From the IMG/VR virus record IMGVR_UViG_2711768043_000005, positions 1-17,778 of that record: 17,778 nt of DNA; one strand, written 5' to 3'. The translations under genes were made by a program, and so were the position numbers. The notes beneath the pieces were generated by a model, which had not been told where the DNA came from, made no database searches, and saw nothing but the letters and a program-made list of their open reading frames with translations. Below, in pieces: positions 1-16,334 of the stretch. Each line of letters opens with the position of its first letter. The first letter of the stretch is position 1. Source of the stretch: a virus. Lineage: Duplodnaviria; Heunggongvirae; Uroviricota; Caudoviricetes.

Positions 1-255
1 GGATTACTGGCATCAACAGGGAGTACAGGCGACTCGTATGACAACGCGATGGCTGAGAGCATCAATGGTCTTTACAAAGCGGAGGTAATACACCGTAAGA
101 GCTGGAAAAACCGTGCAGAAGTGGAACTGGCCACACTAACGTGGGTGGACTGGTATAACAATCGACGATTGCTGGGAAGGCTGGGCCATACTCCTCCGGC
201 AGAAGCAGAAAAAGCTTATTATGCTTCCATCGGAAACGATGATCTGGCAGCCTGA
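1..255 (+). CDS. IS3-family transposase (OrfB/DDE), C-terminal fragment, 5' end outside the window
   Basis: Frame 1 is open from base 1 (GLLASTGSTGDSYDNAMAESINGLYKAEV...LGHTPPAEAEKAYYA), resembling the C-terminal end of IS3-family DDE transposases; stop at 253-255. Recognition by eye, no search. Confidence 0.7.
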   Translation, partial: GLLASTGSTGDSYDNAMAESINGLYKAEVIHRKSWKNRAEVELATLTWVDWYNNRRLLGRLGHTPPAEAEKAYYASIGNDDLAA

Positions 256-370
256 GTTCACAGATAAAACACTCTCCAGGAAACCCGGGGCGGTTCAAAG
301 CCCTTTAAAAGAGTCACCAAAATCAGGTGCTTTGTATCTATTGGGCCATCACATATCAAATCAAGGAACA
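1..370 (+). mobile_element. Right end of an IS3-family insertion sequence; exact right boundary not determined
   Basis: Transposase 3' end followed by about 100-130 bp of non-coding sequence before the phage lysis genes. The inverted repeat cannot be placed without the left end. Confidence 0.4.
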
Positions 371-384
371 AAACAAAGTTAACA

Positions 385-654
385 TCATTTTTTTTGCATG
401 ATGTGACCACGCTCAACTTCAATCCTTCTGATGTCAGCTTTATCGGTATTACACTGCGCCAATGCAGACAACAAGGCGACATTCAGATCTAAGCTCGAGC
501 CCCACGTAAAATGATCAGGTAAATCAGGCTGAGGGGTTTCAGCCGTCAGGCTGGCTGGTAACGGAACTACCGGAACCTGGACGTAAACTGTTCGCGTACT
601 TCCGCAACCGGTCAGCAGCGGCAGCAGGCACAGGACGTGAAGCACAATCATCAT
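385..654 (-). CDS. Rz1-like o-spanin (outer-membrane lipoprotein); start placed at MMIVL
   Basis: Signal peptide with lipobox LLTGC followed by a Pro-rich segment (VPVVPLP...PQPDLP). Lies in a different frame overlapping the 3' end of the Rz-like gene (overlapped spanin architecture). Confidence 0.5.
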   Translation of the reverse strand: MMIVLHVLCLLPLLTGCGSTRTVYVQVPVVPLPASLTAETPQPDLPDHFTWGSSLDLNVALLSALAQCNTDKADIRRIEVERGHIMQKK

Positions 655-931
655 CCGCAACAGCCACTTTGATATCTTCCTGGGTTCTCTGTGACTCCAG
701 TGCGATCTGCTGTTTTGCATGTTGATTCGCCTCCTGAATGATGTTCGTTATTGCCATAGTACGCAGAACATTCGCGGTGATAGCCTCAGTAGAATCAGCT
801 CGCTGTTCCGCAGCATCAGCACGCTTCTGCTCCTCCAGAAACTTTCCATGATAGTGATTCGCTGACCAGACAAGACCACCAGCGACACAAGCAATAAACG
901 TTAAAATGAGCGCCCAATAACTCATCTTCAT
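539..931 (-). CDS. Rz-like i-spanin
   Basis: N-terminal transmembrane helix (YWALILTFIACVAGGLVW) then a charged, Q/E/A-rich periplasmic segment. Sits immediately downstream of the endolysin with a 4-nt overlap. Confidence 0.55.
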   Translation of the reverse strand: MKMSYWALILTFIACVAGGLVWSANHYHGKFLEEQKRADAAEQRADSTEAITANVLRTMAITNIIQEANQHAKQQIALESQRTQEDIKVAVADDDCASRPVPAAAADRLRKYANSLRPGSGSSVTSQPDG

Positions 932-1542
932 ACCAGCAGCGCCGCCCGCGCCTTGTTGTATCGGACCTTACGATCCTCAATACCGTTCAAACCGCCGTTA
1001 ATGATGCGCGTAACACGGTTAATATCGGCACCGTAGATCATGCAACCTTTAGAGGTGTAGAACCATGCAGCTGAGCGCGCAGCCTGTAGTTCCTGTTCCA
1101 GTTGTTCAGGTGAAGTCACGAGATCTAACTTCAGCGCCGCGCCACAGATGCGATAATTATGGAGGCCAGTGATTTGAATTAATCCTCTACCACGATATTT
1201 CCAGCCATCACCTGGTGCTTTGTTACCCAGTCGGTTGCTATACACCAGATTGGCAATAGCATCCTGACGAGCTGCATGTCCGGATGTTCTGCCAAGGGCA
1301 TCAGCCTGCTGCTGTGTGATCCTCTTTCCGAACGTCGCCACAAGCGCAGATGGTGTGTAGTTAAGATTTTCAACTACGGCGCTAAACCCCATCGACTCAT
1401 GGCCTACCTGAGCGATAAACATTGCCTGATCCGCTGGTGCTGTAATGCCGAATTCCTTCATCGCCGCATCAATGTGCGGAAACCAGCGCGCAGCCAGCCC
1501 GGCGCTAATACCAGCCGCCTTTTGAAATAATTGTTGGTTCAT
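928..1542 (-). CDS. Endolysin, glycoside hydrolase family 19 (chitinase-like lysozyme)
   Basis: 204 aa; sequence resembles GH19 phage endolysins (by eye); located between holin-like and spanin genes. Confidence 0.75.
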   Translation of the reverse strand: MNQQLFQKAAGISAGLAARWFPHIDAAMKEFGITAPADQAMFIAQVGHESMGFSAVVENLNYTPSALVATFGKRITQQQADALGRTSGHAARQDAIANLVYSNRLGNKAPGDGWKYRGRGLIQITGLHNYRICGAALKLDLVTSPEQLEQELQAARSAAWFYTSKGCMIYGADINRVTRIINGGLNGIEDRKVRYNKARAALLV

Positions 1543-1823
1543 TAGTGCCTCAGATGATCAACCAGACGTGCAACGTTGCCTCTGACAGCCACCAGCACGG
1601 AAAGAAAAATAGTGTTCGCCACGATAATGGGCCATGAGGAATGGGGATAAATCCCACAGAGATAGGCCAACGGAACAGCACTGTATGTAACAGTAATCAG
1701 CCAGGCTAAACGTGAAACCCAAGGACGATGCCGCGAATCACCACGACGATAAAACATCAGAGTAATAACAACACAAGCACATAACAGCGCATTTATAGTT
1801 GCTGTCGGGTCATTTAGCTCCAC
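1542..1823 (-). CDS. Small membrane protein, possible holin or antiholin
   Basis: 93 aa with at least two hydrophobic helices; overlaps the endolysin start and the upstream holin-like gene end. Confidence 0.45.
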   Translation of the reverse strand: MELNDPTATINALLCACVVITLMFYRRGDSRHRPWVSRLAWLITVTYSAVPLAYLCGIYPHSSWPIIVANTIFLSVLVAVRGNVARLVDHLRH

Positions 1824-2196
1824 CTGAACCTCCCCGGCGCGTTATGAGCGCCACCAGCGAGCCGATATCCTGATTATTCAGGAACGTCAGGATTTTAACG
1901 GCTAAAGCAGAGACGATTACGGCACCAATAGCATCCAGAGGTTTATCACTGTATCCGGTCAAGTTCGCCAGCTTGGAGCCAACCAACCCAGAGCAAAGAA
2001 TCCCGGCAATATATGACACGATAAAATATGCCAGTCGGCGCGATGCACTCAGATCTGCAGCTGTTGCTATGTAGAATACAGCCCCTGCAAATGCGCCAAA
2101 TACAACGCCGTAATCAGTTCCGGTCAGCAGTCCATAAACACTGGCACCCGTCAGGGCACCACCAGCCAGCCCAGTACCGGAAATCGGATCGGACAT
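1810..2196 (-). CDS. Holin-like membrane protein
   Basis: 128 aa, Gly/Ala-rich with multiple transmembrane segments; strong RBS (AAGAGGGGG) before the ATG; first gene of the lysis cassette. Confidence 0.55.
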   Translation of the reverse strand: MSDPISGTGLAGGALTGASVYGLLTGTDYGVVFGAFAGAVFYIATAADLSASRRLAYFIVSYIAGILCSGLVGSKLANLTGYSDKPLDAIGAVIVSALAVKILTFLNNQDIGSLVALITRRGGSGGAK

Positions 2197-2237
2197 TTAG
2201 CCCCCTCTTAATTGCTGTTGGTCCTCTCAGAACGAGG

Positions 2238-2269
2238 GGAAACAAAAAAGGCCGCATTAAGGCGGCCTT
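2238..2269 (-). terminator. Rho-independent terminator (minus strand) after the 198-aa gene
   Basis: Perfect 8-bp stem AAGGCCGC/GCGGCCTT (2248-2255 / 2262-2269) with a 6-nt loop, followed on the minus strand by a T-run (plus-strand A-run 2244-2249). Confidence 0.6.
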
Positions 2270-2286
2270 GGTAAGGTATAGTTTTT

Positions 2287-2883
2287 TTAAGATAAACTTT
2301 GATTGATATACTCATGACACCCAAAAATAAAGGCGTTTTGTGCATCAATAAATGACTTTTTTTCTTCCGGAGTAAAATACCCTTTTGTAAAACATACTTT
2401 TAGCGCTTTTTGAAGATCTGCCGTCAGGGTTATCAACTTACAACCTTCCTCATCAGGCCTTATTAATAGAAGTAATTTATTTTTACTTATTTCAGCGGCC
2501 TTTATTGGAACTTGAATCTCCTCAGGGAAAACACCCTTAGCCAATATATCCATATTCTTATTTCCGACCAGATGCCATTGCTCAAATGTGCTGGCCAACA
2601 TAATTACGTCTGTCACATGCTCAGCGCCAGCAAAACGTATTTGTTGCGCCAATTCTTTATTAGTATTCAAGTGAGCCTGTAATGTGGCTAAGGCAAAATT
2701 TTCTTTGATTGCCCTGTATGCAACCCAACCAGTTATTCCTGCGGCAATAACGCCTGCAAGAGCAGTAATGAGTGTTTCAAAAGGAAAGGAAGAACTGATT
2801 TCAATTGGCGGTAATTTTTCTATTACCAAGGTCAACTCGCCAGTAGTTTTTTCGAAAGCGTACGGTACGTTTTGCCAAGTCAT
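2287..2883 (-). CDS. Hypothetical membrane-anchored protein (AT-rich insert between Q-like gene and lysis cassette)
   Basis: 198 aa; AGGAGG RBS 4 nt before the ATG; one predicted transmembrane helix (LITALAGVIAAGITGWVAYRAI); markedly lower GC than neighbours; flanked by terminator hairpins on both sides. Confidence 0.7.
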   Translation of the reverse strand: MTWQNVPYAFEKTTGELTLVIEKLPPIEISSSFPFETLITALAGVIAAGITGWVAYRAIKENFALATLQAHLNTNKELAQQIRFAGAEHVTDVIMLASTFEQWHLVGNKNMDILAKGVFPEEIQVPIKAAEISKNKLLLLIRPDEEGCKLITLTADLQKALKVCFTKGYFTPEEKKSFIDAQNAFIFGCHEYINQSLS

Positions 2884-2911
2884 GAAGCCTCCTGAGTTTC
2901 AGAGGAATCAT

Positions 2912-2938
2912 AACAAAAAAACCCGCTCAATGGCGGGC
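2912..2938 (-). terminator. tR'-like terminator downstream of the Q-like gene (minus strand)
   Basis: Stem CCCGC/GCGGG (2922-2926 / 2933-2937) with a 6-nt loop, followed on the minus strand by a run of 7 T (plus-strand A-run 2914-2920). Confidence 0.5.
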
Positions 2939-2989
2939 TCTTAATGTTGTGTTGCTCAGTTCGCTTTAACGTCCCGAGCCTACCACAAT

Positions 2990-3568
2990 TTAAGCACTTT
3001 CTTGCTCACTCTGCAACTTAAATCTGTCGCTATTTGTGCCGAATGCGTCACAAACTGGAGCGTACAGGATCGATTCTGCAAGACTTAGCCAAGTGTCAAT
3101 GCGTCGACGACAGGTGATCAGCGGCCAGTCAGGATGTTTAGCCTGCAGTTCATTGGCCATCTGCAACTTGCTCTTACGAAGACGATACCGGTCAACAATC
3201 ACGCTATAGAGCGATCGGTAGTCATCATTCATCAGTACTGAAGCAATGACACCGTCCACTAACAACCCTTCTTCATCTGAACAGAACGCCAGGCCGCTTT
3301 TATTTTTGCTGTTGAGAATTTCACGCAGGTACGCTTCAAGTTCAGGCTTGGTGATACCCGCTATCTTCATCCGGCGTAGCGCTTCATTGATAGCTGTCTT
3401 GGTGATTTTCCCGGATGCCAGAAGCTGGTTAAACATGTTTCCACCACTACCACCGCCGATATAAGACCAGCGGCCCCACATGCGCAACTTGCCTTGTATC
3501 CAGATACTTTCCAGAGTACGAAGGCGAACCATTTCACCTGATTTGCCAACTTCAGAAGGATTAATCAT
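2990..3568 (-). CDS. Q-like late-gene antiterminator (Phage_antitermQ-type), tentative
   Basis: 192 aa; position directly upstream of a terminator and the lysis genes and directly downstream of a DUF968 gene, as in Qin-type prophages. The call rests mainly on synteny. Confidence 0.5.
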   Translation of the reverse strand: MINPSEVGKSGEMVRLRTLESIWIQGKLRMWGRWSYIGGGSGGNMFNQLLASGKITKTAINEALRRMKIAGITKPELEAYLREILNSKNKSGLAFCSDEEGLLVDGVIASVLMNDDYRSLYSVIVDRYRLRKSKLQMANELQAKHPDWPLITCRRRIDTWLSLAESILYAPVCDAFGTNSDRFKLQSEQESA

Positions 3569-3582
3569 TTAGCATTCTCCAC

Positions 3583-4578
3583 TTACGCCAGTACGCCTAT
3601 TGCCAGCGCACGATCGATAAAACGAAATATCAGCTCCAGCTGGGAGCCATACTTCTCTTCAAATGCCACGGTATCCGCATGCAGCTCGTCGTGATGCTTT
3701 CTGCACAAAGGCAACACAAAGAGGTCATGCGCTTTTGTACCCATTCCACCCTGACCGTGGCCTATCAGGTGGTGGGGATCATCAGCAGGCTTTCCACAAC
3801 ATGCACACGGCTGTGTCTTAACCCAGCGCGTGTACTTTTCATTAACCCAGCGGCGACGTTTCGGGCGTAACATAAAAGACTCCGGCGACTCCGGATCCAC
3901 TTTCAGCGCTAGCACCTTTTTCGCTTTATCCTGGATGATGCTGGTGGCAGGAACCAAAGGCACAAGGTCACTTTCCCGGGTGACAGACGGCACAACAGGC
4001 TTCGGTAATCTCAGAGCCTTACGGGCTGCACTTTCCGGTAAGGCATCCGCCAGGTCATTACGAACCAGCCACCAGCACAGTTCCGGCATTGTCATAACGT
4101 GACTATCATCAAAACCGAGATCCCGACGCACGACAGACAACACCCAGCGAGCACAGTTATCCGTTGCCATTGATTCCAGCCGTTCCGTGAACTGATCGCG
4201 CAGCTGGTTATCGCAGTGCCAGCACAGACGGATTGCGCCCGGAGCGTGTCGCATTGTGGTCATGTTCTCGCTGTGCCAGTCGGAATGAGGCCACTGGCAG
4301 CCTTTTTCACGAAGTAACCAGCTTTCAAGACATTCCACGCCACCAGCACGACGGATCACTGCCTCATTGCGGAACACGGCCCGAACGGCAGGATCATCCG
4401 CCAGCGGTTGTGATGCAGCCGGAACGGCACCACTGGCGAAAGATGAATAACGTTCCGGCTCAGGCTCCAGCAGGACACGCCCCTGCATAAACAGGGGCAT
4501 CAGCTCTGAACCTGGCCTGAACAATACGATCCCCATACGCGGGGCAATTTCAGGGGTCAGTAGTGCTCTCACGGTCAC
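3583..4578 (-). CDS. DUF968-family protein with C-terminal Cys/His (HNH-like) motif, YdfU-like
   Basis: 331 aa; C-terminal CACCGK...HHLIGHGQGG...CRKHHDELH motif; GTG start 2 nt after the KilA-N gene stop. Confidence 0.7.
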   Translation of the reverse strand: MTVRALLTPEIAPRMGIVLFRPGSELMPLFMQGRVLLEPEPERYSSFASGAVPAASQPLADDPAVRAVFRNEAVIRRAGGVECLESWLLREKGCQWPHSDWHSENMTTMRHAPGAIRLCWHCDNQLRDQFTERLESMATDNCARWVLSVVRRDLGFDDSHVMTMPELCWWLVRNDLADALPESAARKALRLPKPVVPSVTRESDLVPLVPATSIIQDKAKKVLALKVDPESPESFMLRPKRRRWVNEKYTRWVKTQPCACCGKPADDPHHLIGHGQGGMGTKAHDLFVLPLCRKHHDELHADTVAFEEKYGSQLELIFRFIDRALAIGVLA

Positions 4579-4579
4579 C

Positions 4580-5389
4580 TCAATGAACGGTATCGAGCAG
4601 CTTTAACAGCTCAGGGAATCGGGATTCGAAGAAGTGCGGCTGCGTCTCGCGCGGATTTGCGGGACTGGTGATGTTCTTGCCGAACATGCAGCCTTTCGCT
4701 GTCAGCGACCAGAATTTTTTGATGTTGTTAATCGCGGTACGGCTGTATCGTTCGCGTTGTTCAACGATCCCCAGCTTCGCCATCTGGTGATATGCCTGAT
4801 TAGCCGTCAGGCGGATACCATACTGTTTCAGCAGTGCACTCAGCGACAGCGTAGGGCGACTTGAGCCATCAGGCGCGTCAGCAGGAGCATCAATGGCATA
4901 GCGTGGTGCCAGATTCGGTAAGCCAACAGCCTCCTGGAGTTTCTGACAGGCCCCAAGCACAGATGAGTTAGACAGGTTTAACTCCCGGCGCATAAAGTCC
5001 AGCAGAATCACGCCAGCCTGCATCTTGTCAGCAGCCTGTCCGGATAATTTTTCAGGTGCGCTGGTTACCATATCGAAAGTACGGATCACCTTCAGATGGA
5101 ATGACGGGCTGATCCACATTGCATAGGCATACACCAGTTCTTTGCAGACATACGTTCCCCGTTCATTTCCCCCATGAATCACACTCACCGGGTCAACACC
5201 CAAATTCTGGGTGTTGGTCAATTCATGAACAAGTTCAACAGTTTGTTGGCTGGAAAGAAACTTTCCTGGCTCCTTGGTTCTGGCATTTGCACCAGATGCT
5301 ACTGCTGCGCGATGCAGATCGTTCAGGCTGTAACGTCCATAAGCATCACGACGAACTTCAATACCATCAATGACCATCAGATTATTCAT
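4580..5389 (-). CDS. KilA-N domain protein (N-terminal KilA-N, C-terminal uncharacterized domain)
   Basis: Start placed at MNNLMVIDG, preceded by AGAGGAG RBS; N-terminal region matches the KilA-N DNA-binding domain pattern by eye. The computed ORF extends 11 codons further upstream with no RBS. Confidence 0.7.
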   Translation of the reverse strand: MNNLMVIDGIEVRRDAYGRYSLNDLHRAAVASGANARTKEPGKFLSSQQTVELVHELTNTQNLGVDPVSVIHGGNERGTYVCKELVYAYAMWISPSFHLKVIRTFDMVTSAPEKLSGQAADKMQAGVILLDFMRRELNLSNSSVLGACQKLQEAVGLPNLAPRYAIDAPADAPDGSSRPTLSLSALLKQYGIRLTANQAYHQMAKLGIVEQRERYSRTAINNIKKFWSLTAKGCMFGKNITSPANPRETQPHFFESRFPELLKLLDTVH

Positions 5390-5408
5390 ACTTCGTTTCT
5401 CCTCTTGA

Positions 5409-5798
5409 TCAGGCGGCTGCACCCGCCGTTTTCTCGTACTTACTGATAGTGATCTCGACCTTCCCTTCCGGGATAACCGGTCCCCACTCCACCAGCATTC
5501 TTTTCACCTGACTGTCGTCTTCCCACACCCCCGCGTGGGTCAGGGCGTCAAACAACGCCTTGTTATAGTTGTCCAGATCGCGGATCCTGTTATCCGGAGG
5601 AAACAACACGATCTCCACTGAAGCAGGTGCCGACGTTGGTTTCGGCAGACGACGTAACTGTTCAACTATTGCTGCGCACGCCGCGCTCTGAAATTTTCGC
5701 CCCGCCGCGCTTATCAGGCTCTTACCTGCAAACGCCCCTTTGTTGGGGTGTCGCCAGTACGTGTTCACGCTGGGCGGGAAAGGCAGGATCAGCTTCAT
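5409..5798 (-). CDS. rusA: Holliday-junction resolvase RusA
   Basis: 129 aa; sequence closely resembles E. coli RusA (conserved RDLDN motif); 4-nt ATGA overlap with the upstream gene. Confidence 0.85.
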   Translation of the reverse strand: MKLILPFPPSVNTYWRHPNKGAFAGKSLISAAGRKFQSAACAAIVEQLRRLPKPTSAPASVEIVLFPPDNRIRDLDNYNKALFDALTHAGVWEDDSQVKRMLVEWGPVIPEGKVEITISKYEKTAGAAA

Positions 5799-6121
5799 AC
5801 TTTCAGGCCCCTCTTATGTAACCAGTGGGTTGCACGCAGCCTGGCGTTTTCCTCACCGGCAAGCAGTGAGCGGATAATCCCGACCGCCTCGCTGTCGTCG
5901 TCCTTCACCGCGGTATGAAGCGTGATGCCCCGGGCCACGCCACGCTTTATCGTGATGACGCCTTTTTTCTCCAGTGCGCGAAGATGCTCCACCGCTGCAT
6001 TCACTGAACGGTATCCCAGCATGGTTGCCACCTCCTGATTGGTTGGCGGGAAGCCACGTTCTTTCTGATAAGAAATCAGCATATCCAGCACCTGCTGCTG
6101 GCATTGAGTTAACGTCGTCAT
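5795..6121 (-). CDS. LexA N-terminal DNA-binding-domain-like winged-helix protein, no S24 peptidase domain
   Basis: 108 aa; residues 1-70 align by eye with the LexA DNA-binding domain (LexA: ARQQEVFDLI...[36 protein letters not shown]; here: QCQQQVLDMLISYQKERGFPPTNQEVATMLGYRSVNAAVEHLRALEKKGVITI). Confidence 0.7.
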   Translation of the reverse strand: MTTLTQCQQQVLDMLISYQKERGFPPTNQEVATMLGYRSVNAAVEHLRALEKKGVITIKRGVARGITLHTAVKDDDSEAVGIIRSLLAGEENARLRATHWLHKRGLKV

Positions 6122-6771
6122 GCCGCCATCTCCCTGACCAGTTTTTCCGCCTGCTGGCGAACCTGCGCCAGAAAGGCCTCACCACATGCCTCAAGTTCAT
6201 CGCGCCCGATATAGCTGATTGCCGATCCCTTCCAGGTCTTATCGAAAACAGCAATAGCACCAGCGAAGAAAGCGCCTGTCGGCACCTGCTTCTCATCCTT
6301 CGGGATAAACCAGACAGGCAGTTCAAAACCAATACGCCCGCGAATAAAAGCAATATGGTCTGCATCTTCCGGCCACCACACTTCGCTGGTGGCAGCTTTG
6401 ATCAGGAAAACATAACGCCCGCCCTTATCACGCATGGCACTGGCATGTTTCATGATGTAACGCATGCCGGTGATGTATTGCCCCTCATGCTGACTGGCGC
6501 GGCTGTATGGGGGATTACCAAAGGCAGCACCTTTAAGCTCCGCAAGACGTTCTGACCAGTCATGCGCCAGCGCGTTGTCTTCCGCCGTGTAATACGCAGC
6601 ACATTTGGTGTTATCACCGTCAGTGAACAGATCCAGAACAAACGGGCCAAACAGGGTGTTAATTCCCCAGAAAATGTTGTCCGGCGTGCGCCACTGATCG
6701 CCCACTTCCTTCAGTTCATGGGCTGGTTTGTTCCGCAGTTCCACCAGCGCCTGGCAATATTTATTACTCAT
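6118..6771 (-). CDS. Phage N6-adenine DNA methyltransferase (Dam-like)
   Basis: FGNPPYS motif (the N/DPPY catalytic motif of amino-methyltransferases). ATG at 6771 forms a TAATG stop/start overlap with the upstream gene; the longer ORF (GTG at 6804) would overlap that gene. Confidence 0.8.
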   Translation of the reverse strand: MSNKYCQALVELRNKPAHELKEVGDQWRTPDNIFWGINTLFGPFVLDLFTDGDNTKCAAYYTAEDNALAHDWSERLAELKGAAFGNPPYSRASQHEGQYITGMRYIMKHASAMRDKGGRYVFLIKAATSEVWWPEDADHIAFIRGRIGFELPVWFIPKDEKQVPTGAFFAGAIAVFDKTWKGSAISYIGRDELEACGEAFLAQVRQQAEKLVREMAA

Positions 6772-7265
6772 TAAGCCCCCACGTAATTCCCTGACAGATA
6801 CCACTCTTCACCCGATGCAGCGCGCTTGCTGCTTTTCCGTAAGCACCGCTCACGACGCACCAGAAAATTGTTTCGTTCTGGCTGGGAGTGGCTTTCACGG
6901 AATGCCGCCATCCACACGGTTGCAGCACGACGGTATAAGCCCCTGGACTCCAGTTCTTCAGCCTGGCGGGTCAGGCACAAAATCACCCGGGTGTCGTTAG
7001 TGCCGACATAGAAATTGCGCACAGGTCTGGTTTCACGAACTGGTTGTGGTTCCGGCTCCTGCGCTCTCTCAGTCAGGCGCGGGAAATGTCTGCGTGTATC
7101 CCCTTCACAACGGTGAGCCACACGCCCACTCTGACGTAACTTGCTTGCTGACTGCAGAACGCGCTGCCGTGAGTAACCTGCAAAAGCATCCGCAATGTCT
7201 CCGGAAGTACACCCCGGATGGGCTTCAATGAATTTCTGAACGTCATTTAACAGACTCATGATCAC
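6771..7265 (-). CDS. Winged-helix plus PerC-like domain putative transcriptional regulator
   Basis: 164 aa; C-terminal segment RGLYRRAATVWMAAF...FLVRRERCL resembles the PerC/Pch family signature (GLWRRAA..W...L.RR..C) as recalled; 4-nt overlap with the upstream O-like gene. Confidence 0.5.
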   Translation of the reverse strand: MIMSLLNDVQKFIEAHPGCTSGDIADAFAGYSRQRVLQSASKLRQSGRVAHRCEGDTRRHFPRLTERAQEPEPQPVRETRPVRNFYVGTNDTRVILCLTRQAEELESRGLYRRAATVWMAAFRESHSQPERNNFLVRRERCLRKSSKRAASGEEWYLSGNYVGA

Positions 7266-8203
7266 CCCCTGAATCCTGCCGGGATCTGGCTGTAGTCCAC
7301 GTTGTCGTAACTGGATTTGAAGTACGGGTCTTCGCGTTTTTCGGTGTACGTGCTTACGGACGGCGATAAGCGCAGGGAAAGCTCATCCCATTTTTCCCGC
7401 AGCTTCGACGGGCTGAGCACGTTACGGCACCAGAACGGATCGCGGCTGACGCGGCTGTACATCTCGCAGATTTGTTTGTGAGTACGACCATCCTGCACAC
7501 ACATCAGGCGAATTTCGTTTGCCCAGGCTGTCCAGTTCGGTTCTTTGGGACGAACCACCTCGCCGTCACATTCGGCAGCCAGCTCGTACAGGGCGATGAT
7601 TTTTTTCCAGAGCCACTGTGCGCAGGTCAAATCATCCTGCGTCCCCCACTGGCGCTTTTTAGGGCTGAATACAACCGCATCAGGATGGCGAGTTAAAAAA
7701 TCCTGTTCATCCGTCTGCGTGTCCGGTTGCGAAGCGTCCGGACGAGAAGGTTTTTTATCTGACGGATCATGTTTTGATTTTACTGACGGATCCCCGCCAG
7801 ATTCTGACGGGTGAAAACCCGCTTTTTTGCCAGATTTCGACGCATCAAATTTTGACGGGTCAGATTTTGATGCGTCAGATTTTGACGGGTCAGAATCTGA
7901 CAGTTGAGAAAATGCCGCTGCCTGAAGCTTCGCAACGTTAAGCTGATAAACATTCGACGCATTGCGGTTACCCTGGCGACGCGCCTTACGCGTTAACCAG
8001 CCTTCTGCTTCCAGCCGTGCGATAGCCGTTCTGACGGTACTCATCCCCGCGCCAATCTGACGGGCAATGGTTTCAATTGATGGCCAGCACACACCTTCGT
8101 CATTACTGAAATCAGCCAGGCGGGCCATAATTGCCACGCTGGATAATTTCATGCCTGACGCTGCGCAACCATCCCATACATAGCCGGTTAATTTAGTGCT
8201 CAT
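7262..8203 (-). CDS. Replication initiation protein, lambda O-like, with internal low-complexity linker
   Basis: 313 aa; N-terminal winged-helix-like region, central SDSDPSKSDASKSDPSKFDASKS linker encoded by a DNA iteron array, C-terminal domain; sits after the cII-like gene as O does in lambda. Confidence 0.55.
   Translation of the reverse strand: MSTKLTGYVWDGCAASGMKLSSVAIMARLADFSNDEGVCWPSIETIARQIGAGMSTVRTAIARLEAEGWLTRKARRQGNRNASNVYQLNVAKLQAAAFSQLSDSDPSKSDASKSDPSKFDASKSGKKAGFHPSESGGDPSVKSKHDPSDKKPSRPDASQPDTQTDEQDFLTRHPDAVVFSPKKRQWGTQDDLTCAQWLWKKIIALYELAAECDGEVVRPKEPNWTAWANEIRLMCVQDGRTHKQICEMYSRVSRDPFWCRNVLSPSKLREKWDELSLRLSPSVSTYTEKREDPYFKSSYDNVDYSQIPAGFRG
7836..7895. repeat. Iteron array (tandem ~15-bp repeats TTTGAYGSGTCAGAT) inside the O-like gene; putative origin of replication
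   Basis: Direct repeats at 7851-7865, 7866-7880, 7881-7895 plus a related unit at 7836-7850; further TGACGG motifs at 7760, 7784 and 7805. Confidence 0.5.
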
Positions 8204-8212
8204 GACCGACCT

Positions 8213-8551
8213 CTATTTCCCTGAATTTACGACGAAACTGTTCGAGCGGACTGAAGCACTCATGCTCATAGCCTTCGCGGAGGTAGATAACCCGTTGTGT
8301 TTCCGGTTCCCAACGAATGACTCTGACGGGCACTCCGTAGTGATCTTTGAACCAGCGGTTAACTTGTCGCAAAGGACTGTCTCCTTCTGCCGGTTGAAAT
8401 CACCCACAGCCCACTCTGCAAAGCTGTGGGTTACAATTTCCCTGTCACCTGGTACATTTACTGCATAGCAATACTCCACCTTCGCTTTTCCACCCGGTAC
8501 AGGAAGCGCAATCAGTTGCGAGCGACGGTAGTGTGTTGTTAAACTGTTCAT
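8213..8551 (-). CDS. Hypothetical protein
   Basis: 112 aa; ATGA start/stop overlap with the upstream cII-like gene and GGAGA about 10 nt upstream; no recognisable domain; an overlapping plus-strand ORF (8196-8468) makes the call uncertain. Confidence 0.4.
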
Positions 8552-9132
8552 GCGTTAGTTTCTCCACAGTCACGACACGCCACGGCGCCCGGAGCTGCAC
8601 ACTCGCGGGCGTCATTACTTTCTGAAATGCAAAAGATTTTGTAGACCAGTGCTGCATGCTCCTGCAGCTTCGAAATTGAGAGATATAGCTCGTCGTTAAT
8701 TGCTGTTTTCTCATGCGGTTCCACTACACCGTCTTCGATTGCTGAACGAATCTGTTTTGAATAACTGCCGATCTGTTCAATGACTTCCAGCAGACGCTGG
8801 TTAATATCGGCGTTGTCCACATCCTCGACGTCAGGAAGAGACACAAATACGCCATTTGCAGACTGCGCCACAGCATCAGCAATGAAGTGAGTGCCACCAG
8901 CACGCTGTAAAACCATTGCCCATCCCAGCGGGAAAATCTGATCGCCATCGGCACGAAGGCGGTTAAATAATGCGCTCTCTGTTACATCCAGCCAGTCAGC
9001 AGCTTCAGCGTAACCCCCCGGCAACGCTGCGATAGTTTTTCTGACAGCTTTCACGTACCACTTAGGCTGTTTTTCTACTTTCCAGTGATGCTTACCCACG
9101 GCTATCTCCTTAAAACTGTGGTTACTTTTCAT
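8548..9132 (-). CDS. cII-like / YdaT-like regulatory protein (start uncertain)
   Basis: Follows the cro-like gene; start placed at the first in-frame ATG (MKSNHSF) since the longer ORF overlaps cro by 80+ nt; family assignment is from memory and tentative. Confidence 0.45.
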
Positions 9133-9370
9133 CTGATGAATCTTTAATCTTTTGAAAAATATCTGGACGTAATTTTTCTTTTGATATGCCAGTGGTCTTT
9201 TCAATGAATATCGAGAGCTTTGCAGGGGGACGCTTTTCTCTGTTCAACCAGTTCCAGACATGTTGTTGCTTTACTAAATGACCGCTGCTGGCTGTGAGCT
9301 TCCGAGCCAATTCTGATTGACCACCAGCCAGAGCGATTGCCTCCGATAAGGCTAATTGCTCAGGTGTCAT
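9122..9370 (-). CDS. Cro-like HTH regulator (YdaS-type)
   Basis: 82 aa; AAGGAGA RBS before the ATG; HTH-like segment GGQSELARKLTASSGHLVKQ; divergent from the CI-like repressor across an operator-rich spacer. Confidence 0.65.
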   Translation of the reverse strand: MTPEQLALSEAIALAGGQSELARKLTASSGHLVKQQHVWNWLNREKRPPAKLSIFIEKTTGISKEKLRPDIFQKIKDSSDEK

Positions 9371-9505
9371 AGCTTTCTCCTTTTTAGGTAGTTAAGTTGT
9401 TACGAGTTGCAAGAATACAACATTAACAACTTTTATCACAACTTTTAGGTGTTGGAAAGCTAAAACATAAAGTTGTAACCTCATCAAAAAAGAGAGGGAT
9501 ATGTT
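9371..9505. promoter_or_regulatory. OR-like operator/promoter region between cro-like and cI-like genes
   Basis: Repeated GTTGT/ACAAC half-sites (AAGTTGT at 9394 and 9471; ACAACTT at 9426 and 9439). Candidate minus-strand promoter TTGTGA (9436-9441) / TATTCT (9412-9417); candidate plus-strand promoter TTGGAA (9452-9457) / TAACCT (9476-9481). Confidence 0.55.
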
Positions 9506-10192
9506 GTGAAAACACTGGCAGAACGATTAAAGATAGGTAGAGAGAAAGCTGGCATGAGCCAAGCTCAACTAGCTGAAAAAATTGGACTTTCACAACAATC
9601 TGTAGCCAAAATAGAGAATGGCGAAACTCTACAACCGCGCAAAATTAAAGAAATTGCAAAAGTTTTAGGTGTATCACAAAAGTGGTTACAACTTGGTATT
9701 GAAGACAACGCATCCATACCTGATCTTGTTGTAAAAGAAGCAGAAAGCACCGCATTAGACCCCGATATTTTCGTAAACATTCCTGTTTTAGATGTCGAGT
9801 TATCGGCAGGTAACGGATGTCTGGCTGAAATAGTTGAATCAGCTATTGACTGGTTTCCGTTAAGAAGAGCAGATTTGAGAAAATCTGGCGTATGTGCATC
9901 TAATGCCAAGATCGTAAAAATATGGGGGAACAGTTTATTACCGGTTCTCAATAATGGAGATCTTGTTGCCGTTGATATTTCTCAAACCGTTCCTATTCGT
10001 GATGGCGATCTTTATGCCGTACGAGATGGTGTATTGCTAAGGGTTAAAATACTTATCAACTTACCTGACGGTGGCTTGATTCTTAGAAGCTTCAACAAAG
10101 ATGAGTACCCAGATGAAATACTCACCTTTGAAGATAGACGAGCCAGAATTCATGTGATAGGTAGGGTATTCTGGTCATCGCGAACTTGGTAA
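9506..10192 (+). CDS. CI-like prophage repressor (N-terminal XRE-type HTH, C-terminal S24 LexA-like peptidase domain)
   Basis: 228 aa; GTG start with AGAGAGGG RBS; HTH (MSQAQLAEKIGLSQQSVAKIENGE); Ala-Gly cleavage-site context (LSAGNG); S24-like Ser (GNSLLP) and Lys (LRVK). Confidence 0.85.
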   Translation: MKTLAERLKIGREKAGMSQAQLAEKIGLSQQSVAKIENGETLQPRKIKEIAKVLGVSQKWLQLGIEDNASIPDLVVKEAESTALDPDIFVNIPVLDVELSAGNGCLAEIVESAIDWFPLRRADLRKSGVCASNAKIVKIWGNSLLPVLNNGDLVAVDISQTVPIRDGDLYAVRDGVLLRVKILINLPDGGLILRSFNKDEYPDEILTFEDRRARIHVIGRVFWSSRTW

Positions 10193-11065
10193 TGCATCGA
10201 AAAGCATTTCTTCAGAAATAATTTTAAGTTTTGCACCATTATCATCCCTATAAGATATAGCCTTTTCGATCTTCCTTCCGTGACTTGAGAATTTCCAATC
10301 ACGGGAGGAAAGCGTCCCAATTACTAAAAAATCCAACTTTTGAGTAATTCCACTACTGATGTTCCCACCAGCATTTTTAATCAAATTTTCAACTACGGCT
10401 CTCTTTCCTGCAACAAAAGTGCCTGTAAGACAATAGGTTTTACCCTCTAACTCTATCGAAGCCCCTACATCAATAGGCAGCCTGGTCGCCAAACCATCCA
10501 CCACCCCACTTTCCAAGTCACATCCTGTGAAGTCTACTAATGCCTTATGTAGAGTTAAACTCTCATCTTCAGTAATAACACCATCTTTAAGAATTTCCTT
10601 TACAAGTGCATAAAGTTTTTTTCCTGGGTAGTTGTTCTTCAAAGCTCCATTTTGCTCAAGCCACCAATTAAGATATCTTATTTCTTCTTGAGTTAAGTTC
10701 CGATCAGCAATTAATCCTTTACATAGTCCATTAAGTAAATGGACATCTACATCCTTGGAGTAAAAATCAATTTCAGGGATATCAAGAATTTCCCTCTGTA
10801 TTTGGAGAAGGCTATTTTTAAGGTCATCACGTTCTTCTGATGTGATTATTCCATCCGCAAGAATATCCGACACCCGTGCTGATAGACTTTTTATAACTCC
10901 ATTATTGATAATCTGCTTTGCTTCAAGTAACCATGTATCTAAGTAAAGAACCTCCTCTTCACGGACAACTCCATCTGCAATGATTCCATCAATGATGCTA
11001 ATCAAGTTAGCAAATAACTTGTCCCGGTTCTGTGTGTAATTAAAAGCGTAAAGCGCGTCTTCCAT
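10175..11065 (-). CDS. Protein with tandem TerB-like ADG-x-IT-x-EE helical repeats and a C-terminal BRCT domain
   Basis: 296 aa from ATG at 11065 (GGAGG RBS 4 nt upstream); four repeats of the form [IL]xDG[VI]ITxEExxxL; C-terminus GKTYCLTGTF...GGNISSGITQKLDFLVIGT...AKLKIISEEMLFDAL resembles the ligase-type BRCT fold; AT-rich; 3' end overlaps the cI 3' end by 18 bp. Confidence 0.75.
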   Translation of the reverse strand: MEDALYAFNYTQNRDKLFANLISIIDGIIADGVVREEEVLYLDTWLLEAKQIINNGVIKSLSARVSDILADGIITSEERDDLKNSLLQIQREILDIPEIDFYSKDVDVHLLNGLCKGLIADRNLTQEEIRYLNWWLEQNGALKNNYPGKKLYALVKEILKDGVITEDESLTLHKALVDFTGCDLESGVVDGLATRLPIDVGASIELEGKTYCLTGTFVAGKRAVVENLIKNAGGNISSGITQKLDFLVIGTLSSRDWKFSSHGRKIEKAISYRDDNGAKLKIISEEMLFDALPSSR

Positions 11066-11099
11066 ACAACCTCCTTTTTTTGATAATCCTTGCACTCCT

Positions 11100-11200
11100 T
11101 GGCTACTCGTTCAAACCACATAAAGTTGTTGACAACATTCAAAACCACAACTAAATTACAACTTAAAGGTGTTAAAACAACGAACAGGCAGGACGCCCAC
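11100..11200 (+). promoter_or_regulatory. OL/PL-like operator-promoter region
   Basis: Candidate promoter TTGACA (11129-11134), 17-nt spacer, TAAATT (11152-11157); operator-like motifs shared with the OR region: CATAAAGTTGT (11120 vs 9468) and ACAACTTwwAGGTGTT (11157-11172 vs 9439-9454). Confidence 0.55.
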
Positions 11201-11267
11201 GAAGTAGCCGCCGGTGGCGTATGAATGACCGGATGATTCGTTAAATACTATGTGTAAGAGAGCGCAA

Positions 11268-11471
11268 ATGAACCGTTATTTCACATGCTCGTTTTGTGGC
11301 GCAAACGAGCTGCAGGCAAAAAAAATCATCGCCAAAGGCGGAAAAGATGAAGTTGCTATCTGCTCTGAGTGCGTAGTCTTGTGTGTCGGGGCATTAATCA
11401 ATATCAGCACAACTATTCAGTTCACACCAAATGAGAATGCGCCTTTAGATGCGCGGAAATCTGGAGGTTAA
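11268..11471 (+). CDS. ClpX-type zinc-ribbon (ZBD-like) small protein
   Basis: 67 aa; YFTCSFCGANELQAKKIIAKGG...AICSECVVLC aligns by eye with the E. coli ClpX N-terminal zinc-binding domain ([32 protein letters not shown]); AAGAGAG RBS. Confidence 0.7.
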   Translation: MNRYFTCSFCGANELQAKKIIAKGGKDEVAICSECVVLCVGALINISTTIQFTPNENAPLDARKSGG

Positions 11472-11479
11472 AGAACAAA

Positions 11480-11755
11480 ATGAAAGTCCAGATTTTAAAC
11501 AATAGTGGTGAAGTCGTTTGGTCATACGACATAGCCGCTCCTGTAGATCAGAGCGGCGATAGCTGGACCAATGGAAAACATCAGATTATGGCTGGAGTTG
11601 TGTTCTCTTTACGCCGTGCTTTAGAACAGGCTGAAGTCTTTCCATCAGACCCTGAATGGAAATGGCCTTTTTCTATTTGTCCAAATTCGGAGAGTACATT
11701 TCAGAAAATTGGTCAGAAAGTCGCACTCGAAGAGCATCAGCCAACTGTTTCCTGA
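11480..11755 (+). CDS. Hypothetical protein
   Basis: 91 aa; GGAGG RBS 8 nt upstream; its 3' end overlaps the convergent 81-aa ORF, so the true stop or reality of one of the two is uncertain. Confidence 0.5.
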   Translation: MKVQILNNSGEVVWSYDIAAPVDQSGDSWTNGKHQIMAGVVFSLRRALEQAEVFPSDPEWKWPFSICPNSESTFQKIGQKVALEEHQPTVS

Positions 11756-11918
11756 TTTTTTCAGGTAACTCGTCGGCATCGCAGAAACAACAACGCTCGA
11801 TCATGTTGAAAGCCGATTCGTAGAACTGTTTTTGCTGAGTGTCGCTGAGACAGGAAAAGAGCGACGTTACGATGATTTTATTAATTGCATTATCAAGTTC
11901 TTTTTCATCAAAAGTCAT
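11673..11918 (-). CDS. Hypothetical protein (antisense to the early-left operon)
   Basis: 81 aa; AAGGAAAA RBS-like sequence before the ATG at 11918; no recognised domain. Confidence 0.45.
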   Translation of the reverse strand: MTFDEKELDNAINKIIVTSLFSCLSDTQQKQFYESAFNMIERCCFCDADELPEKIRKQLADALRVRLSDQFSEMYSPNLDK

Positions 11919-12173
11919 TTGATTTTCCTTTTATGTATACGGGCTTAAAAGGATACCACCGAGCCTGAAGTGGTGAAAAGACAGGCACATAACAGCTAAG
12001 TATTTTCAACCAAAGAGAATCCTTAGCGTTGTGGTGAATGCGGCTCAGCGCACGCGGGTTAAGGTTGAGGCTGACAGTCGACCTTCTGTGGATACCCACC
12101 CGTCTGGTGTGCAACCTTCGCCAGGCACCGGGAGGCACCCGGCACCACAACTTTATGCTGTGTGTAGTCCTGG

Positions 12174-12218
12174 CGGTACCAGTTTGTACCCTTGCTTCCG
12201 GCTGGTACCGTCCTTTTT
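12174..12218 (+). terminator. Candidate intrinsic terminator within a GC-rich non-coding island
   Basis: Perfect 9-bp stem CGGTACCAG (12174-12182) / CTGGTACCG (12202-12210), 19-nt loop, followed by TCCTTTTT. Confidence 0.45.
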
Positions 12219-12355
12219 ACAAAACAGAGAAGAGCATCACCGGACGACGGGCTCATAACCCAATCCATCCGGGCGGCTGCCACCGCAGGTGTTCTTCTCT
12301 GTTTTGTGGAGAAACTAATCGGCCTTGCAGGGTCGATATGATGAGGAGCAGCAAA

Positions 12356-12718
12356 ATGGCTAGCGAACGCAGTACTGATGTGCAGGCATTTATCGGGGAG
12401 CTGGACGGCGGCGTATTTGAAACCAAAATCGGCGCAGTTCTCAGTGAAGTCGCTTCCGGTGTGATGAACACGAAAACCAAAGGTAAGGTCTCACTCAACC
12501 TGGAAATCGAACCATTTGATGAGAACCGTGTGAAAATCAAACACAAACTCTCATATGTTCGCCCGACTAACCGTGGGAAAATTTCCGAAGAAGACACCAC
12601 CGAAACGCCGATGTATGTCAATCGCGGTGGTCGCCTGACTATTCTGCAGGAAGACCAGGGACAATTACTGACTCTTGCCGGTGAGCCTGACGGAAAACTC
12701 CGCGCAGCAGGTCATTAA
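12356..12718 (+). CDS. Hypothetical protein, YfdP-like (120 aa)
   Basis: GAGGAG RBS 7 nt before the ATG at 12356; the upstream in-frame extension to 12038 is Arg/Pro/Cys-rich and lacks an RBS. Confidence 0.6.
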   Translation: MASERSTDVQAFIGELDGGVFETKIGAVLSEVASGVMNTKTKGKVSLNLEIEPFDENRVKIKHKLSYVRPTNRGKISEEDTTETPMYVNRGGRLTILQEDQGQLLTLAGEPDGKLRAAGH

Positions 12719-12783
12719 TATCATTCTTAATTAACTAATTATTTATCTCATCACTGAATATCTTAATATAGTGAGGACTTATT

Positions 12784-13608
12784 ATGTCTCAGAACTTAGA
12801 CGCAACCGCAATTAATCAAATCCATGCCCTTATTTCTGCTCAGGGTGTTAATGAAATTATCAGTAAGATTGGTGCCGATGCTGTGGCATTGCCTGAGAAT
12901 TTCCGCATTCATGATCTGGAAAAATTTAATTTAAATCGCTTCCGTTTCCGTGGTGCGCTTTCCACTGCCAGCATCGATGACTTTACCCGTTATTCTAAAG
13001 ATCTTGCAGATGAAGGCACCCGCTGCTTTATCGATGCTGATAATATGCGTGCCGTCAGTGTGCTTAACCTGGGTACTATTGATGAACCAGGTCACGCAGA
13101 TAACACCGCCACTCTCAAACTGAAAAAGACAGCACCGTTCTCTGCCCTGTTGTCTGTTAACGGCGAGCGTAACTCCCAGAAATCACTGGCAGAATGGATT
13201 GAAGACTGGGCCGACAACCTTGTGGGCTTTGATGCTAATGGTGACGCCATTCAGGCAACAAAAGCGGCTGCGGCAATCCGTAAAATCACGATTGAAGCAA
13301 ACCAGACCGCTGATTTTGAAGATAATGACTTCAGCGGCAAACGCTCCCTGATGGAATCTGTCGAAGCGAAGACCAAAGACATTATGCCAGTGGCATTTGA
13401 ATTTAAATGCGTTCCGTTTGAAGGTCTGAAAGAACGTCCGTTTAAATTACGCCTCAGCATTATCACTGGCGATCGTCCTGTACTGGTTCTGCGCATTATT
13501 CAGCTGGAAGCGGTGCAGGAAGAAATGGCTAACGAATTTCGTGATCTGCTTGTTGAGAAATTCAAGGACAGCAAAGTAGAAACCTTTATTGGTACTTTCA
13601 CCGCCTGA
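12784..13608 (+). CDS. DUF2303-type protein, YfdQ-like (CPS-53 family)
   Basis: 274 aa, acidic; sequence and length resemble E. coli YfdQ as recalled; RBS-like GAGGA upstream. Confidence 0.7.
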
Positions 13609-13620
13609 TTTCATTACTGC

Positions 13621-13642
13621 AAATGCCCCTGCGGGGGCATTT
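13621..13642 (+). terminator. Hairpin, possible weak terminator or RNA processing site after the YfdQ-like gene
   Basis: AAATGCCCC-TGC-GGGGCATTT perfect 9-bp stem with a 3-nt loop; only a short T-stretch follows. Confidence 0.35.
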
Positions 13643-13735
13643 ATGGAAACGTAATTTACTCAATAATCGCCGGATGGTGAGGGATTCTTTTTACCAGAAT
13701 TCAGCGCGGTGCAGCGCATATACGTGGAGAACAAA

Positions 13736-14272
13736 ATGTCATTTATTAAAACTTTTTCCGGGAAGCATTTTTATTATGACAGGATAAATAAAGACGACAT
13801 CGATATTAACGATATCGCGGTTTCCCTTTCAAATATCTGTCGCTTTGCCGGTCATCTTTCGCACTTCTACAGCGTCGCCCAACATGCGGTTCTTTGCAGC
13901 CAGCTGGTGCCGCAGGAATTTGCTTTTGAAGCGTTAATGCATGATGCAACAGAAGCGTATTGCCAGGACATTCCCGCACCACTGAAACGCCTTCTTCCTG
14001 ACTATAAACAAATGGAAGAAAAAATAGACTCCGTAATCCGTGAGAAATACGGATTACCCCCAGTTATGAGTACGCCCGTGAAATATGCCGATCTCATCAT
14101 GCTGGCAACCGAACGCCGCGATCTCGGGCTTGATGATGGCTCTTTCTGGCCTGTACTGGAAGGTATCCCGGCAACAGAGATGTTCAACGTGATTCCACTG
14201 GCACCGGGCCATGCCTACGGGATGTTTATGGAACGCTTTAACGAGTTATCGGAGTTACGCAAATGCGCATGA
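13736..14272 (+). CDS. HD-domain phosphohydrolase, YfdR-like (5'-deoxynucleotidase-type)
   Basis: 178 aa from ATG at 13736 (GGAGA RBS); metal-binding H...HD motif (ALMHDATEAY) and upstream His residues. Confidence 0.7.
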   Translation: MSFIKTFSGKHFYYDRINKDDIDINDIAVSLSNICRFAGHLSHFYSVAQHAVLCSQLVPQEFAFEALMHDATEAYCQDIPAPLKRLLPDYKQMEEKIDSVIREKYGLPPVMSTPVKYADLIMLATERRDLGLDDGSFWPVLEGIPATEMFNVIPLAPGHAYGMFMERFNELSELRKCA

Positions 14273-16320: not shown

Positions 16321-16334
16321 CTTATTGATTTTAA

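Follow-up and report, generated by a model that had tools for sequence, protein, structure and literature searches.

The window analysed here is a 17,778-nt stretch of viral DNA (IMG/VR record IMGVR_UViG_2711768043_000005, positions 1 to 17,778). It carries a 198-amino-acid open reading frame (ORF), hereafter the cargo gene, at 2287-2883 on the minus strand, between the gene for a Q-like late-gene antiterminator and the first holin gene of the lysis cassette. Sequence comparison gives good support for window 2242-2914 (minus strand, ∼670 bp) being a self-contained accessory cassette, or "moron", in a variable slot. Taken as a whole, we read the element as an accessory cassette lying between a tR′-like terminator and a conserved holin leader and encoding a membrane protein that acts in phage conflict, a reading which we hold to be somewhat probable. 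Cargo genes between Q and the lysis genes are a familiar feature. We found no earlier description of the protein superfamily, of its close attachment to this slot or of the dual-reading element at the cassette boundary.

Among 5426 complete E. coli genomes, 269 matched the interval from Q to the holin gene, and the cargo gene was present in 32 of these. Megablast matches on the holin side stopped at window position 2241 and those on the Q side at 2912-2916, both breaks coinciding with the ends of two T-runs; these sharp stops mark the ∼670-bp block as a discrete cassette. The flanks were 77-99% identical in phages and prophages that have unrelated genes in the slot. In phages SKA5 and 118970_sal3 the lysis cassette and the DUF968 gene are 97-99% identical to those of the window, Q is a different one and the slot holds an unrelated 85-amino-acid ORF; other occupants unrelated to the cargo gene were found in FAM21845, Ec42, TST3 and Klebsiella phages. 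Behind the same DUF1133-type Q, the cargo elsewhere was a 249-amino-acid protein, an unrelated 198-amino-acid protein on the opposite strand, a 141-amino-acid protein annotated as "TciA" with a partial TerB match (E 2e-6), a 79-amino-acid protein, or an insertion sequence. The 198-amino-acid slot gene of strain Ec42 was considered as an inverted copy of the cargo gene and rejected. Patchy presence with sharp boundaries, a downstream terminator of its own and atypical composition are all moron features. The first-pass annotation, made from the sequence alone, had placed the gene in the late-region slot where stx- and bor-type genes sit, and had proposed a comparison with related prophages. The unrelated occupants and the sharp boundaries uphold the Q-to-holin cargo slot; the reference to bor was misplaced. 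Lambda bor is not located in the Q-S interval. That interval shows only orf-64 in lambda.

The ATG start of the cargo gene is at 2883, and the Shine-Dalgarno sequence AGGAGG (2893-2888, minus strand) lies four nt ahead of it; the first-pass annotation had already noted the AGGAGG. The product is identical to WP_000220228.1, annotated as "hypothetical protein". GC content of the gene is 38.4% (32.7% at third codon positions, GC3), compared with 47.5-55.4% for the neighbouring Q, holin, endolysin and DUF968 genes, which bears out the AT-richness noted earlier, and nine homologous loci show the same bias. In a comparison with the Enterobacter orthologue (72% nucleotide identity), the ratio of nonsynonymous to synonymous differences (pN/pS) was 0.19, with pS at 0.77 and synonymous sites saturated. 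Homologues of full length and equal size occur in several genera. From this ratio and these homologues it follows that the ORF is a real gene, with a sequence record of purifying selection. A frameshifted allele, P0002, in which the last ∼24 residues are replaced and the protein is extended to 224 amino acids, was found in 16 member sequences on 31 contigs (e.g. E. coli UPEC-245U). The carriers, 32 of the 5426 complete E. coli genomes, are E. coli of many hosts and pathotypes.

The terminator upstream of the cassette, at 2915-2942 on the minus strand, was detected in a terminator scan. Its stem spans 2942-2917, and the T-run at 2921-2915 forms the 3′ arm. The hairpin with its seven T's folds at −16.4 kcal/mol (z −5.0), and none of 200 shuffles folded as well. 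When six loci with a DUF1133-type Q were aligned, the 3′ end of Q, a ∼45-nt leader, the hairpin and the T-run were kept, and the sequences diverged completely beyond. Because the hairpin is kept with the Q module whatever cargo comes next, its assignment to the Q/late-promoter module, and hence as tR′-like, is well supported by the alignment. The tR′-like hairpin and T-run of the first-pass annotation were thus located, and the folding check that it had called for sustains both this hairpin and the downstream one (0 of 200 shuffles each). An Rfam search gave solely sub-threshold attenuator-like matches, on the two terminators.

Further upstream in the same module, a candidate pR′-like late promoter was recognized by eye at 2988-3016 (minus strand), with a −35 element TTGCAG (3016-3011), a 17-nt spacer and a −10 element TTAAAT (2993-2988) that overlaps the Q stop codon. 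A −10-like TAGGCT at 2982-2977 matches the position of the pause-inducing AACGAT in lambda; where lambda pR′ reads TTGACT-17-TAAATT and then AACGAT, the window reads TTGCAG-17-TTAAAT and then TAGGCT at equal spacing. The block is kept in the alignment of six DUF1133-type loci. A promoter scan of the window did not flag it, and it is known from reading by eye. Between the candidate promoter and the hairpin lies the conserved leader (2943-2987, minus strand, ∼45 nt), which in the printed alignment was judged by eye to be near-unchanged from E. coli to Klebsiella, against ∼77% identity for nucleotide matches extending over the Q gene. By eye, E. coli and Klebsiella seem to differ less over 2943-3016 (minus strand) than over the Q coding sequence, and a small extra hairpin was seen within this leader. 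In lambdoid phages the late promoter is constitutive and its transcripts end at tR′ in lysogens as short RNAs (PMC7547250). Transcription from the candidate pR′ that stops at the hairpin would give a short RNA of ∼68 nt, and by analogy the 2943-3016 leader may yield a stable ∼68-nt RNA in lysogens, comparable to lambda 6S RNA or StxS.

At the other end, the cassette has its own intrinsic terminator at 2240-2269 (minus strand), with a stem at 2269-2248 and a T-run to 2240. Its folding energy is −14.3 kcal/mol (z −4.2), a value matched by 0 of 200 shuffles, in agreement with the strong downstream terminator that had been proposed. The Enterobacter orthologue has a different Q family upstream and a different lysis cassette downstream, its 3′ untranslated region and terminator are clearly similar to those of the window, and it has the same AGGAGGCTTCATG start region. 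The downstream terminator and the ribosome-binding site thus appear to travel with the gene, which for the terminator is well supported by these comparisons. In 10 of 12 family contexts the scan placed a terminator 3′ of the stop codon, and an eleventh was recognized by eye in locus L031 (L numbers designate the loci compared). Other cargos of the slot each have their own, different terminator, followed by the conserved holin leader.

This leader, at 2197-2241 on the minus strand, is where homology with cassette-less prophages resumes, and it is kept in every aligned Phage_holin_8 locus. Within it, CCCCTC can pair with the holin ribosome-binding site GAGGGGG (fold z −2.0), which suggests that the holin start may be translationally masked too. 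Loci L027 (∼4640-4680) and L148 (∼3640-3700) contain fragments of the holin_8 leader after the cassette terminator, ahead of lysis genes of another type, and L148 also has a degenerate holin_8 start. From their sequences we take these fragments to be recombination scars. The holin_8 leader has been carried into phages with another lysis cassette, which indicates that the cassette is mobile.

Directly after the T-run of the tR′-like terminator stands a TGTTATGAT box (TGnTATGAT) at 2907-2915, minus strand. The 13-mer TTTTTGYTATGAT occurs once in the window and in 0 of 200 shuffles, and in six subfamily contexts it occurs once per locus, 24-40 nt ahead of the family start codon. It also precedes the sister family described below and a STAND NTPase cargo, and it is absent from the four DUF1133 loci with other cargo in the six-locus alignment. 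TGnTATGAT fits the extended −10 consensus TGnTATAAT; judged by its sequence, the box, which falls on the cassette side of the boundary, may be an extended −10-like promoter element, the 5′ arm of an RNA hairpin that pairs with the start codon, or both. As a promoter of the cassette's own, it would make the cassette a classical moron. The subfamilies of L008 and L019 have different −10-like boxes. Given these varied or missing boxes across subfamilies, a promoter of its own is, by sequence comparison, not a family-wide feature.

The predicted hairpin lies at 2879-2914 (minus strand) and would mask both the ribosome-binding site and the start codon, with a minimum-energy fold of −11.4 kcal/mol (z −2.3). 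In its outer helix UAUGA pairs with UCAUG at the start codon, and in its inner helix CCUCU (2905-2901) pairs with GGAGG (2892-2888) of the Shine-Dalgarno sequence. In predicted folds the start codon was paired in 15 of 16 contexts, and the two-helix hairpin was clear in 14 of them, with z from −1.1 to −4.2. In an alignment of 13 sequences, which are related to one another and from which the structure was itself derived, 84.6% of cells pair, whereas sliding the partner lowers this to 41-66%; in four pairs both positions vary, and a paired fraction as high was reached by 1 of 500 shuffles. RNAalifold independently predicted the identical hairpin. Support for the predicted masking hairpin is therefore moderate. 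In a transcript starting ∼7 nt past the box the 5′ arm would be missing, and the ribosome-binding site is free in the predicted fold (0 to −4 kcal/mol).

A word-indexed search for homologues of the cargo protein gave 11 clusters, from E. coli and Enterobacter only, and an exhaustive profile search gave 36 representatives at 50% clustering, mostly of ∼190-230 amino acids with a few shorter fragments. The genera are Escherichia, Enterobacter, Citrobacter, Salmonella, Hafnia, Providencia and Pectobacterium, and all members are annotated as hypothetical. Length and motifs are conserved over the seven genera: an N-terminal MxWxGxPF, a K-I-P, an FSWE just ahead of the transmembrane helix and an arginine ∼25 residues past it. 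Searches of Pfam, NCBIfam, PADLOC and PDB sequence families with the window protein, and family-wide scans, gave no meaningful match. The only PHROG match was 18859, "unknown function", and a PDB profile search returned only E > 0.05. Over 33 members, PADLOC matches were weak, with a best E of 5e-4 in two members and no model matching more than four. The remote-homology search that the first-pass annotation had recommended thus led to no characterised family, and only to a sister family at the profile level.

The sister family was found by a boundary-motif scan of viral contigs. Its members have 220-231 amino acids, start with MDILNLLEVLKP and show the same layout, and it aligned with the cargo family in hhalign at a probability of 95.4% (E 1.7e-8, 173 columns). 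All are hypothetical proteins of Enterobacter, Citrobacter, Klebsiella and Buttiauxella. In loci L034, L046, L047, L104, L105, L110, L117 and L121, which are Enterobacter, Citrobacter and Klebsiella prophages, the sister-family gene stands just past a GGGTTTTTTGYTATGAT motif, behind Q. On these alignments, family and sister family form an uncharacterised superfamily confined to Enterobacterales prophages. In 50,697 cultured phage records, tblastn found no match for the window protein or the sister family; family member P0025 had one remote match, in phage LLS. This phage (PQ299149, L147 2969-3603), isolated on E. coli K-12, is the sole cultured-phage match among three protein queries, and its record splits the gene into two overlapping ORFs (genes 49 and 50), with a DNA methylase and then a pinholin cassette behind them. 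A genome-collection scan for family loci returned one locus. No paper mentioning WP_000220228 or phrog_18859 was found in the literature, and the cargo protein is not listed in the supplements of the DefensePredictor paper.

Some 20 distinct contexts of the family were compared. The gene lies in the late region beside a Q-like gene, upstream of lysis genes, or both, or else in a prophage remnant; in a few loci just one of the two flanks, Q or lysis, was identifiable. The Q types were DUF1133, PF06323, PF03589 and PF06530, plus an unassigned 200-amino-acid protein after NinG, and the lysis cassettes begin with holin_8, holin_2_1, holin_3_1 or holin_3_3. In every informative context, gene order places the superfamily in the Q-to-lysis slot, whatever the Q or holin family. 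The gene was mostly the first ORF after Q in the contexts looked up first; as a rule this did not hold up in a motif-independent sample, and the claim was reduced to a constant place within the Q-to-lysis slot. The gene is retained in two degraded prophage remnants without lysis genes (L019 5001-5663; L025 4001-4573). One of these remnants consists of integrase, excisionase-like and Gp157 genes, and the other has a truncated Q and an IS3-family element. Company in the slot includes orphan DNA methylases, an Endonuclease_NS protein, a DUF726 protein, a partial TerB-like protein and a STAND/AAA_16 NTPase. The last of these, a 468-amino-acid protein of L057 (1759-3300; nSTAND1, with a weak match to PADLOC mad8), stands behind a DUF1133 Q at the same terminator-plus-TATGAT junction and is, from its domains, likely a defence gene in the same slot.

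The structure of the cargo protein was modelled with AlphaFold. With 10 close sequences the model was unusable, at a predicted local distance difference test score (pLDDT) of 41, and with 33 diverse sequences the score was 83.8. In the latter model residues 1-34 are disordered, one long helix (35-106) comprises the transmembrane segment and the first helix of a bundle, and helices 121-140, 145-167 and 172-197 complete a four-helix bundle (∼60-197). There is a single hydrophobic segment, residues 37-56, and no second candidate. A single transmembrane helix followed by a soluble C-terminal domain, as the first-pass annotation had it, is therefore what the model shows, the domain being helical and confidently modelled. 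The N-terminal tail (residues 1-35) is acidic. Summed over 33 members, there are 32 K/R and 64 D/E in the 15 residues on the N-terminal side of the helix, and 93 K/R and 34 D/E in the 15 on its C-terminal side. Because of these flanking charges, the positive-inside rule places the bundle in the cytoplasm, and the topology prediction, suggested earlier and now made, is N-out. We thus predict from the sequence a single-pass inner-membrane protein with a periplasmic acidic N-tail of ∼35 residues and a cytoplasmic bundle. BFVD and Foldseek-PDB searches gave no significant match, Foldseek giving nothing below E = 0.02; the best structural matches were sensor domains of Tar, Tsr, TorS, QseE and NarQ, at 4-13% identity and non-significant Foldseek E-values. 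A releasable signal-anchor (SAR) function was considered and dropped: the window helix has 58% Gly/Ala/Ser/Thr, the family mean is 42% and that of the sister family 30%.

These features suggest a scheme of expression. In the lysogen, polymerase from the constitutive late promoter would stop at tR′, and any expression of the cargo gene would require leakage past this terminator or initiation at the TGnTATGAT box as an extended −10 promoter. The terminator of the cassette would shield the holin gene from such lysogen transcription. After induction, Q-modified polymerase would pass both terminators and the cargo gene would be the first late gene; in the read-through transcripts the hairpin would mask the ribosome-binding site and the start codon, so that translation should be low. 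As to function, we tentatively propose by analogy, as a possibility rather than an expectation, a non-essential inner-membrane protein in phage-phage or phage-host conflict. With modest confidence, we name as candidate roles the exclusion of superinfecting phages at DNA entry and a membrane effector of the abortive-infection type. A role in the lysogen is favoured by the promoter-like box, by retention in remnants without lysis genes, by the conflict-type company in the slot and by the cassette's own terminator, because a terminator would be pointless for a gene read only by terminator-resistant polymerase. A bolder proposal, which we consider unlikely, is that the two families of the superfamily (families A and B) form a new class of prophage-encoded inner-membrane effectors hard-wired to the Q-lysis junction, expressed in two modes and excluding or aborting superinfecting phages. 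In the first mode a transcript started from the box, and hence without the 5′ arm of the hairpin, would be translated in the lysogen; the second mode would use Q-dependent read-through transcripts, in which the arm is present and would damp translation. One DNA element would then be a promoter and, as RNA, a translational repressor.

Several observations weigh against the reading of an accessory cassette for phage conflict. No homologue of known function was found in the searches above, and PADLOC-DB 2.0 gave no match for the window protein. The topology derives from the positive-inside rule as its one line of evidence. The TGnTATGAT box has no −35 partner and was unflagged in the promoter scan, about half of the family contexts lack it, and the RNA hairpin may be sufficient to account for the conservation of the box. 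In L012, L149, L150 and L155 the ribosome-binding site abuts the T-run and leaves no room for a promoter, which suggests from the layout that such contexts may be expressed by read-through only. In the motif-independent scan, the gene was separated from Q by other cargo or a ∼1.2-kb gap in most of the 11 loci. Confinement to the late operon, a terminator that is mostly directly upstream and the masked start favour a purely late role; such strict confinement is unlike a generic lysogen-expressed defence gene and would fit a late function.

The main rival is accordingly a late-phase accessory, produced only once Q has acted, that either tunes lysis timing or the membrane state ahead of holin triggering or blocks wasteful re-infection of the lysing cell; it could be a generic antiholin-like or proton-motive-force modulating factor. 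We judge it unlikely. It would account for a family confined to the late operon, from Q to the lysis genes, in every informative context, and for a terminator directly upstream in most loci, even where other cargo lies between (L150, L155), with several loci offering no promoter room. A masked ribosome-binding site and start codon is reminiscent of the fine-tuned translation of lysis genes, and a single-pass protein of ∼200 amino acids with a large domain past the helix recalls T4 holin T. The first-pass annotation had named, as a finding that would tell against cargo, homology to a lysis accessory protein inherited along with the lysis cassette; this was looked for and not found. Of the 269 matching E. 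coli genomes 237 lack the gene, and most of these have the same holin genes at 87-99% identity; at least four unrelated holin families accompany it, and no lysis family of Pfam, PHROG or NCBIfam, holin or antiholin, matched the protein. Because the gene is absent with most of the same holins, occurs with four holin families and has no lysis-family signature, the idea of a lysis component is weakened, and we do not think that the cargo protein is part of the lysis machinery. Two remnants, moreover, keep the gene after loss of the lysis genes, and the cassette's own terminator would be purposeless if the gene were read only by terminator-resistant polymerase.

The remaining explanations seem less probable still. 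Moron architecture, atypical composition, persistence in prophage remnants and carriage by E. coli of many hosts and pathotypes would also suit a lysogenic-conversion factor unrelated to phages, serving envelope stress tolerance, colonisation or virulence like other lambdoid morons. This we think quite unlikely, as the protein has no likeness to a known virulence or stress protein, the gene is rare (32 of 5426 genomes), and its strict late-operon position would be left unexplained. A reversed topology, with the N-terminus cytoplasmic and the bundle periplasmic as a sensor-like or decoy domain related in fold to the ligand-binding domains of histidine kinases and chemoreceptors, has in its favour the first bundle helix, which continues straight from the transmembrane helix as in such sensor domains; it is very unlikely given the charges over 33 members, which strongly favour a cytoplasmic C-terminal domain, the presence of one transmembrane helix only, the lack of any Foldseek match below E = 0.02 and the lack of a Pfam sensor-domain match. 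An ORF that is decaying, or that is carried along without any selected function, might be argued from the frameshifted P0002 allele (16 member sequences, 31 contigs) and from the two overlapping ORFs annotated in phage LLS; a pN/pS of 0.19 with saturated synonymous sites, length and motifs kept over seven genera, a confident predicted structure and conserved regulatory flanks make this extremely unlikely.

The preferred reading, an accessory cassette whose membrane protein acts in phage conflict, can be set beside known systems. With the lambdoid morons as defined in HK97 and HK022 the cassette shares patchy presence, sharp boundaries, AT-richness, its own terminator and a small membrane protein. 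As to their promoter, what is found here is a candidate box without a −35, for which the hairpin offers another explanation. HK97 gp15, compared by description, is an example of a moron that encodes a membrane superinfection-exclusion protein. Its gene is located with the tail genes rather than in the Q-lysis slot. The Shiga toxin genes, as Q-to-S cargo, offer an analogy for position: they occupy the same slot behind a constitutive late promoter and a terminator, with high expression after Q only (PMC7547250). Their product is secreted, whereas the window protein is unrelated and membrane-bound; the stx leader has 258 nt, compared with ∼68 nt in the window, where Q is of the DUF1133 type; and the window cassette, unlike the stx system, adds a second terminator before the holin gene.

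For the protein itself, the nearest likeness in topology is SNIPE, a membrane-bound nuclease defence protein of E. coli that is single-pass, was shown experimentally to be N-out/C-in and acts at the inner membrane during phage DNA injection (PMC13190303). The topology predicted for the window protein is the same. The window protein has neither DUF4041 nor GIY-YIG, shows no detectable homology to SNIPE, and has as its cytoplasmic part a bare four-helix bundle without a catalytic motif. The sensor domains of chemoreceptors and histidine kinases (Tar, Tsr, TorS, QseE, NarQ) share a bundle directly after a transmembrane helix. They have two such helices and a periplasmic bundle, whereas the window protein has one helix, a bundle predicted to be cytoplasmic and no output domain; neither it nor any of the 33 members matched a sensor-domain family in Pfam. 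Like the single-pass lysis proteins T4 holin T and antiholin RI, the window protein, of ∼200 amino acids, crosses the membrane once and is encoded beside lysis genes. Its predicted orientation is opposite to that of T4 holin T, it matches no holin or antiholin family in Pfam or PHROGs and is not co-inherited with a lysis cassette, and the family's helix is not of the releasable, weakly hydrophobic type.

The window is part of a lambda-like E. coli prophage, and the region of interest is 100% identical to many complete E. coli chromosomes. On the minus strand the order of the late region is the DUF968 gene (3583-4578), the Q-like antiterminator gene, the 198-amino-acid cargo gene, two holin genes, the endolysin gene and the spanin gene. 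The Q-like protein (2990-3568, minus strand; 192 amino acids) matched Pfam DUF1133 (E 3e-92), Phage_antitermQ (E 2e-8) and PHROG 753, labelled "anti-termination protein Q-like", and HHpred has assigned DUF1133 as a Q antiterminator (PMC8136144). The lysis cassette starts with the Phage_holin_8 gene at 1810-2196 (Pfam E 1e-34; PHROG 198, holin), followed by the second holin gene at 1542-1823, the gene for a family-19 glycosidase endolysin at 928-1542 and the spanin gene after it, all on the minus strand. At the right end of the window (15157-17778) the prophage integrase gene and host proA were found. In strain D10 the prophage adjoins a tRNA-Thr gene and proA; the tRNA-Thr gene lies between the integrase gene and proA there, and is therefore probably the attachment site.

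The Q-to-lysis slot of lambda-like prophages includes Shiga toxin among its cargo, which gives it medical and ecological weight. What is added here is a superfamily with exact cassette boundaries and a layout of terminator, promoter-like box, masking hairpin, gene and terminator. If the protein tunes lysis instead of acting in phage conflict, it would be a holin-independent lysis modulator. If it blocks or aborts phage infection, a compact single-gene membrane system would be added to the known prophage defences.

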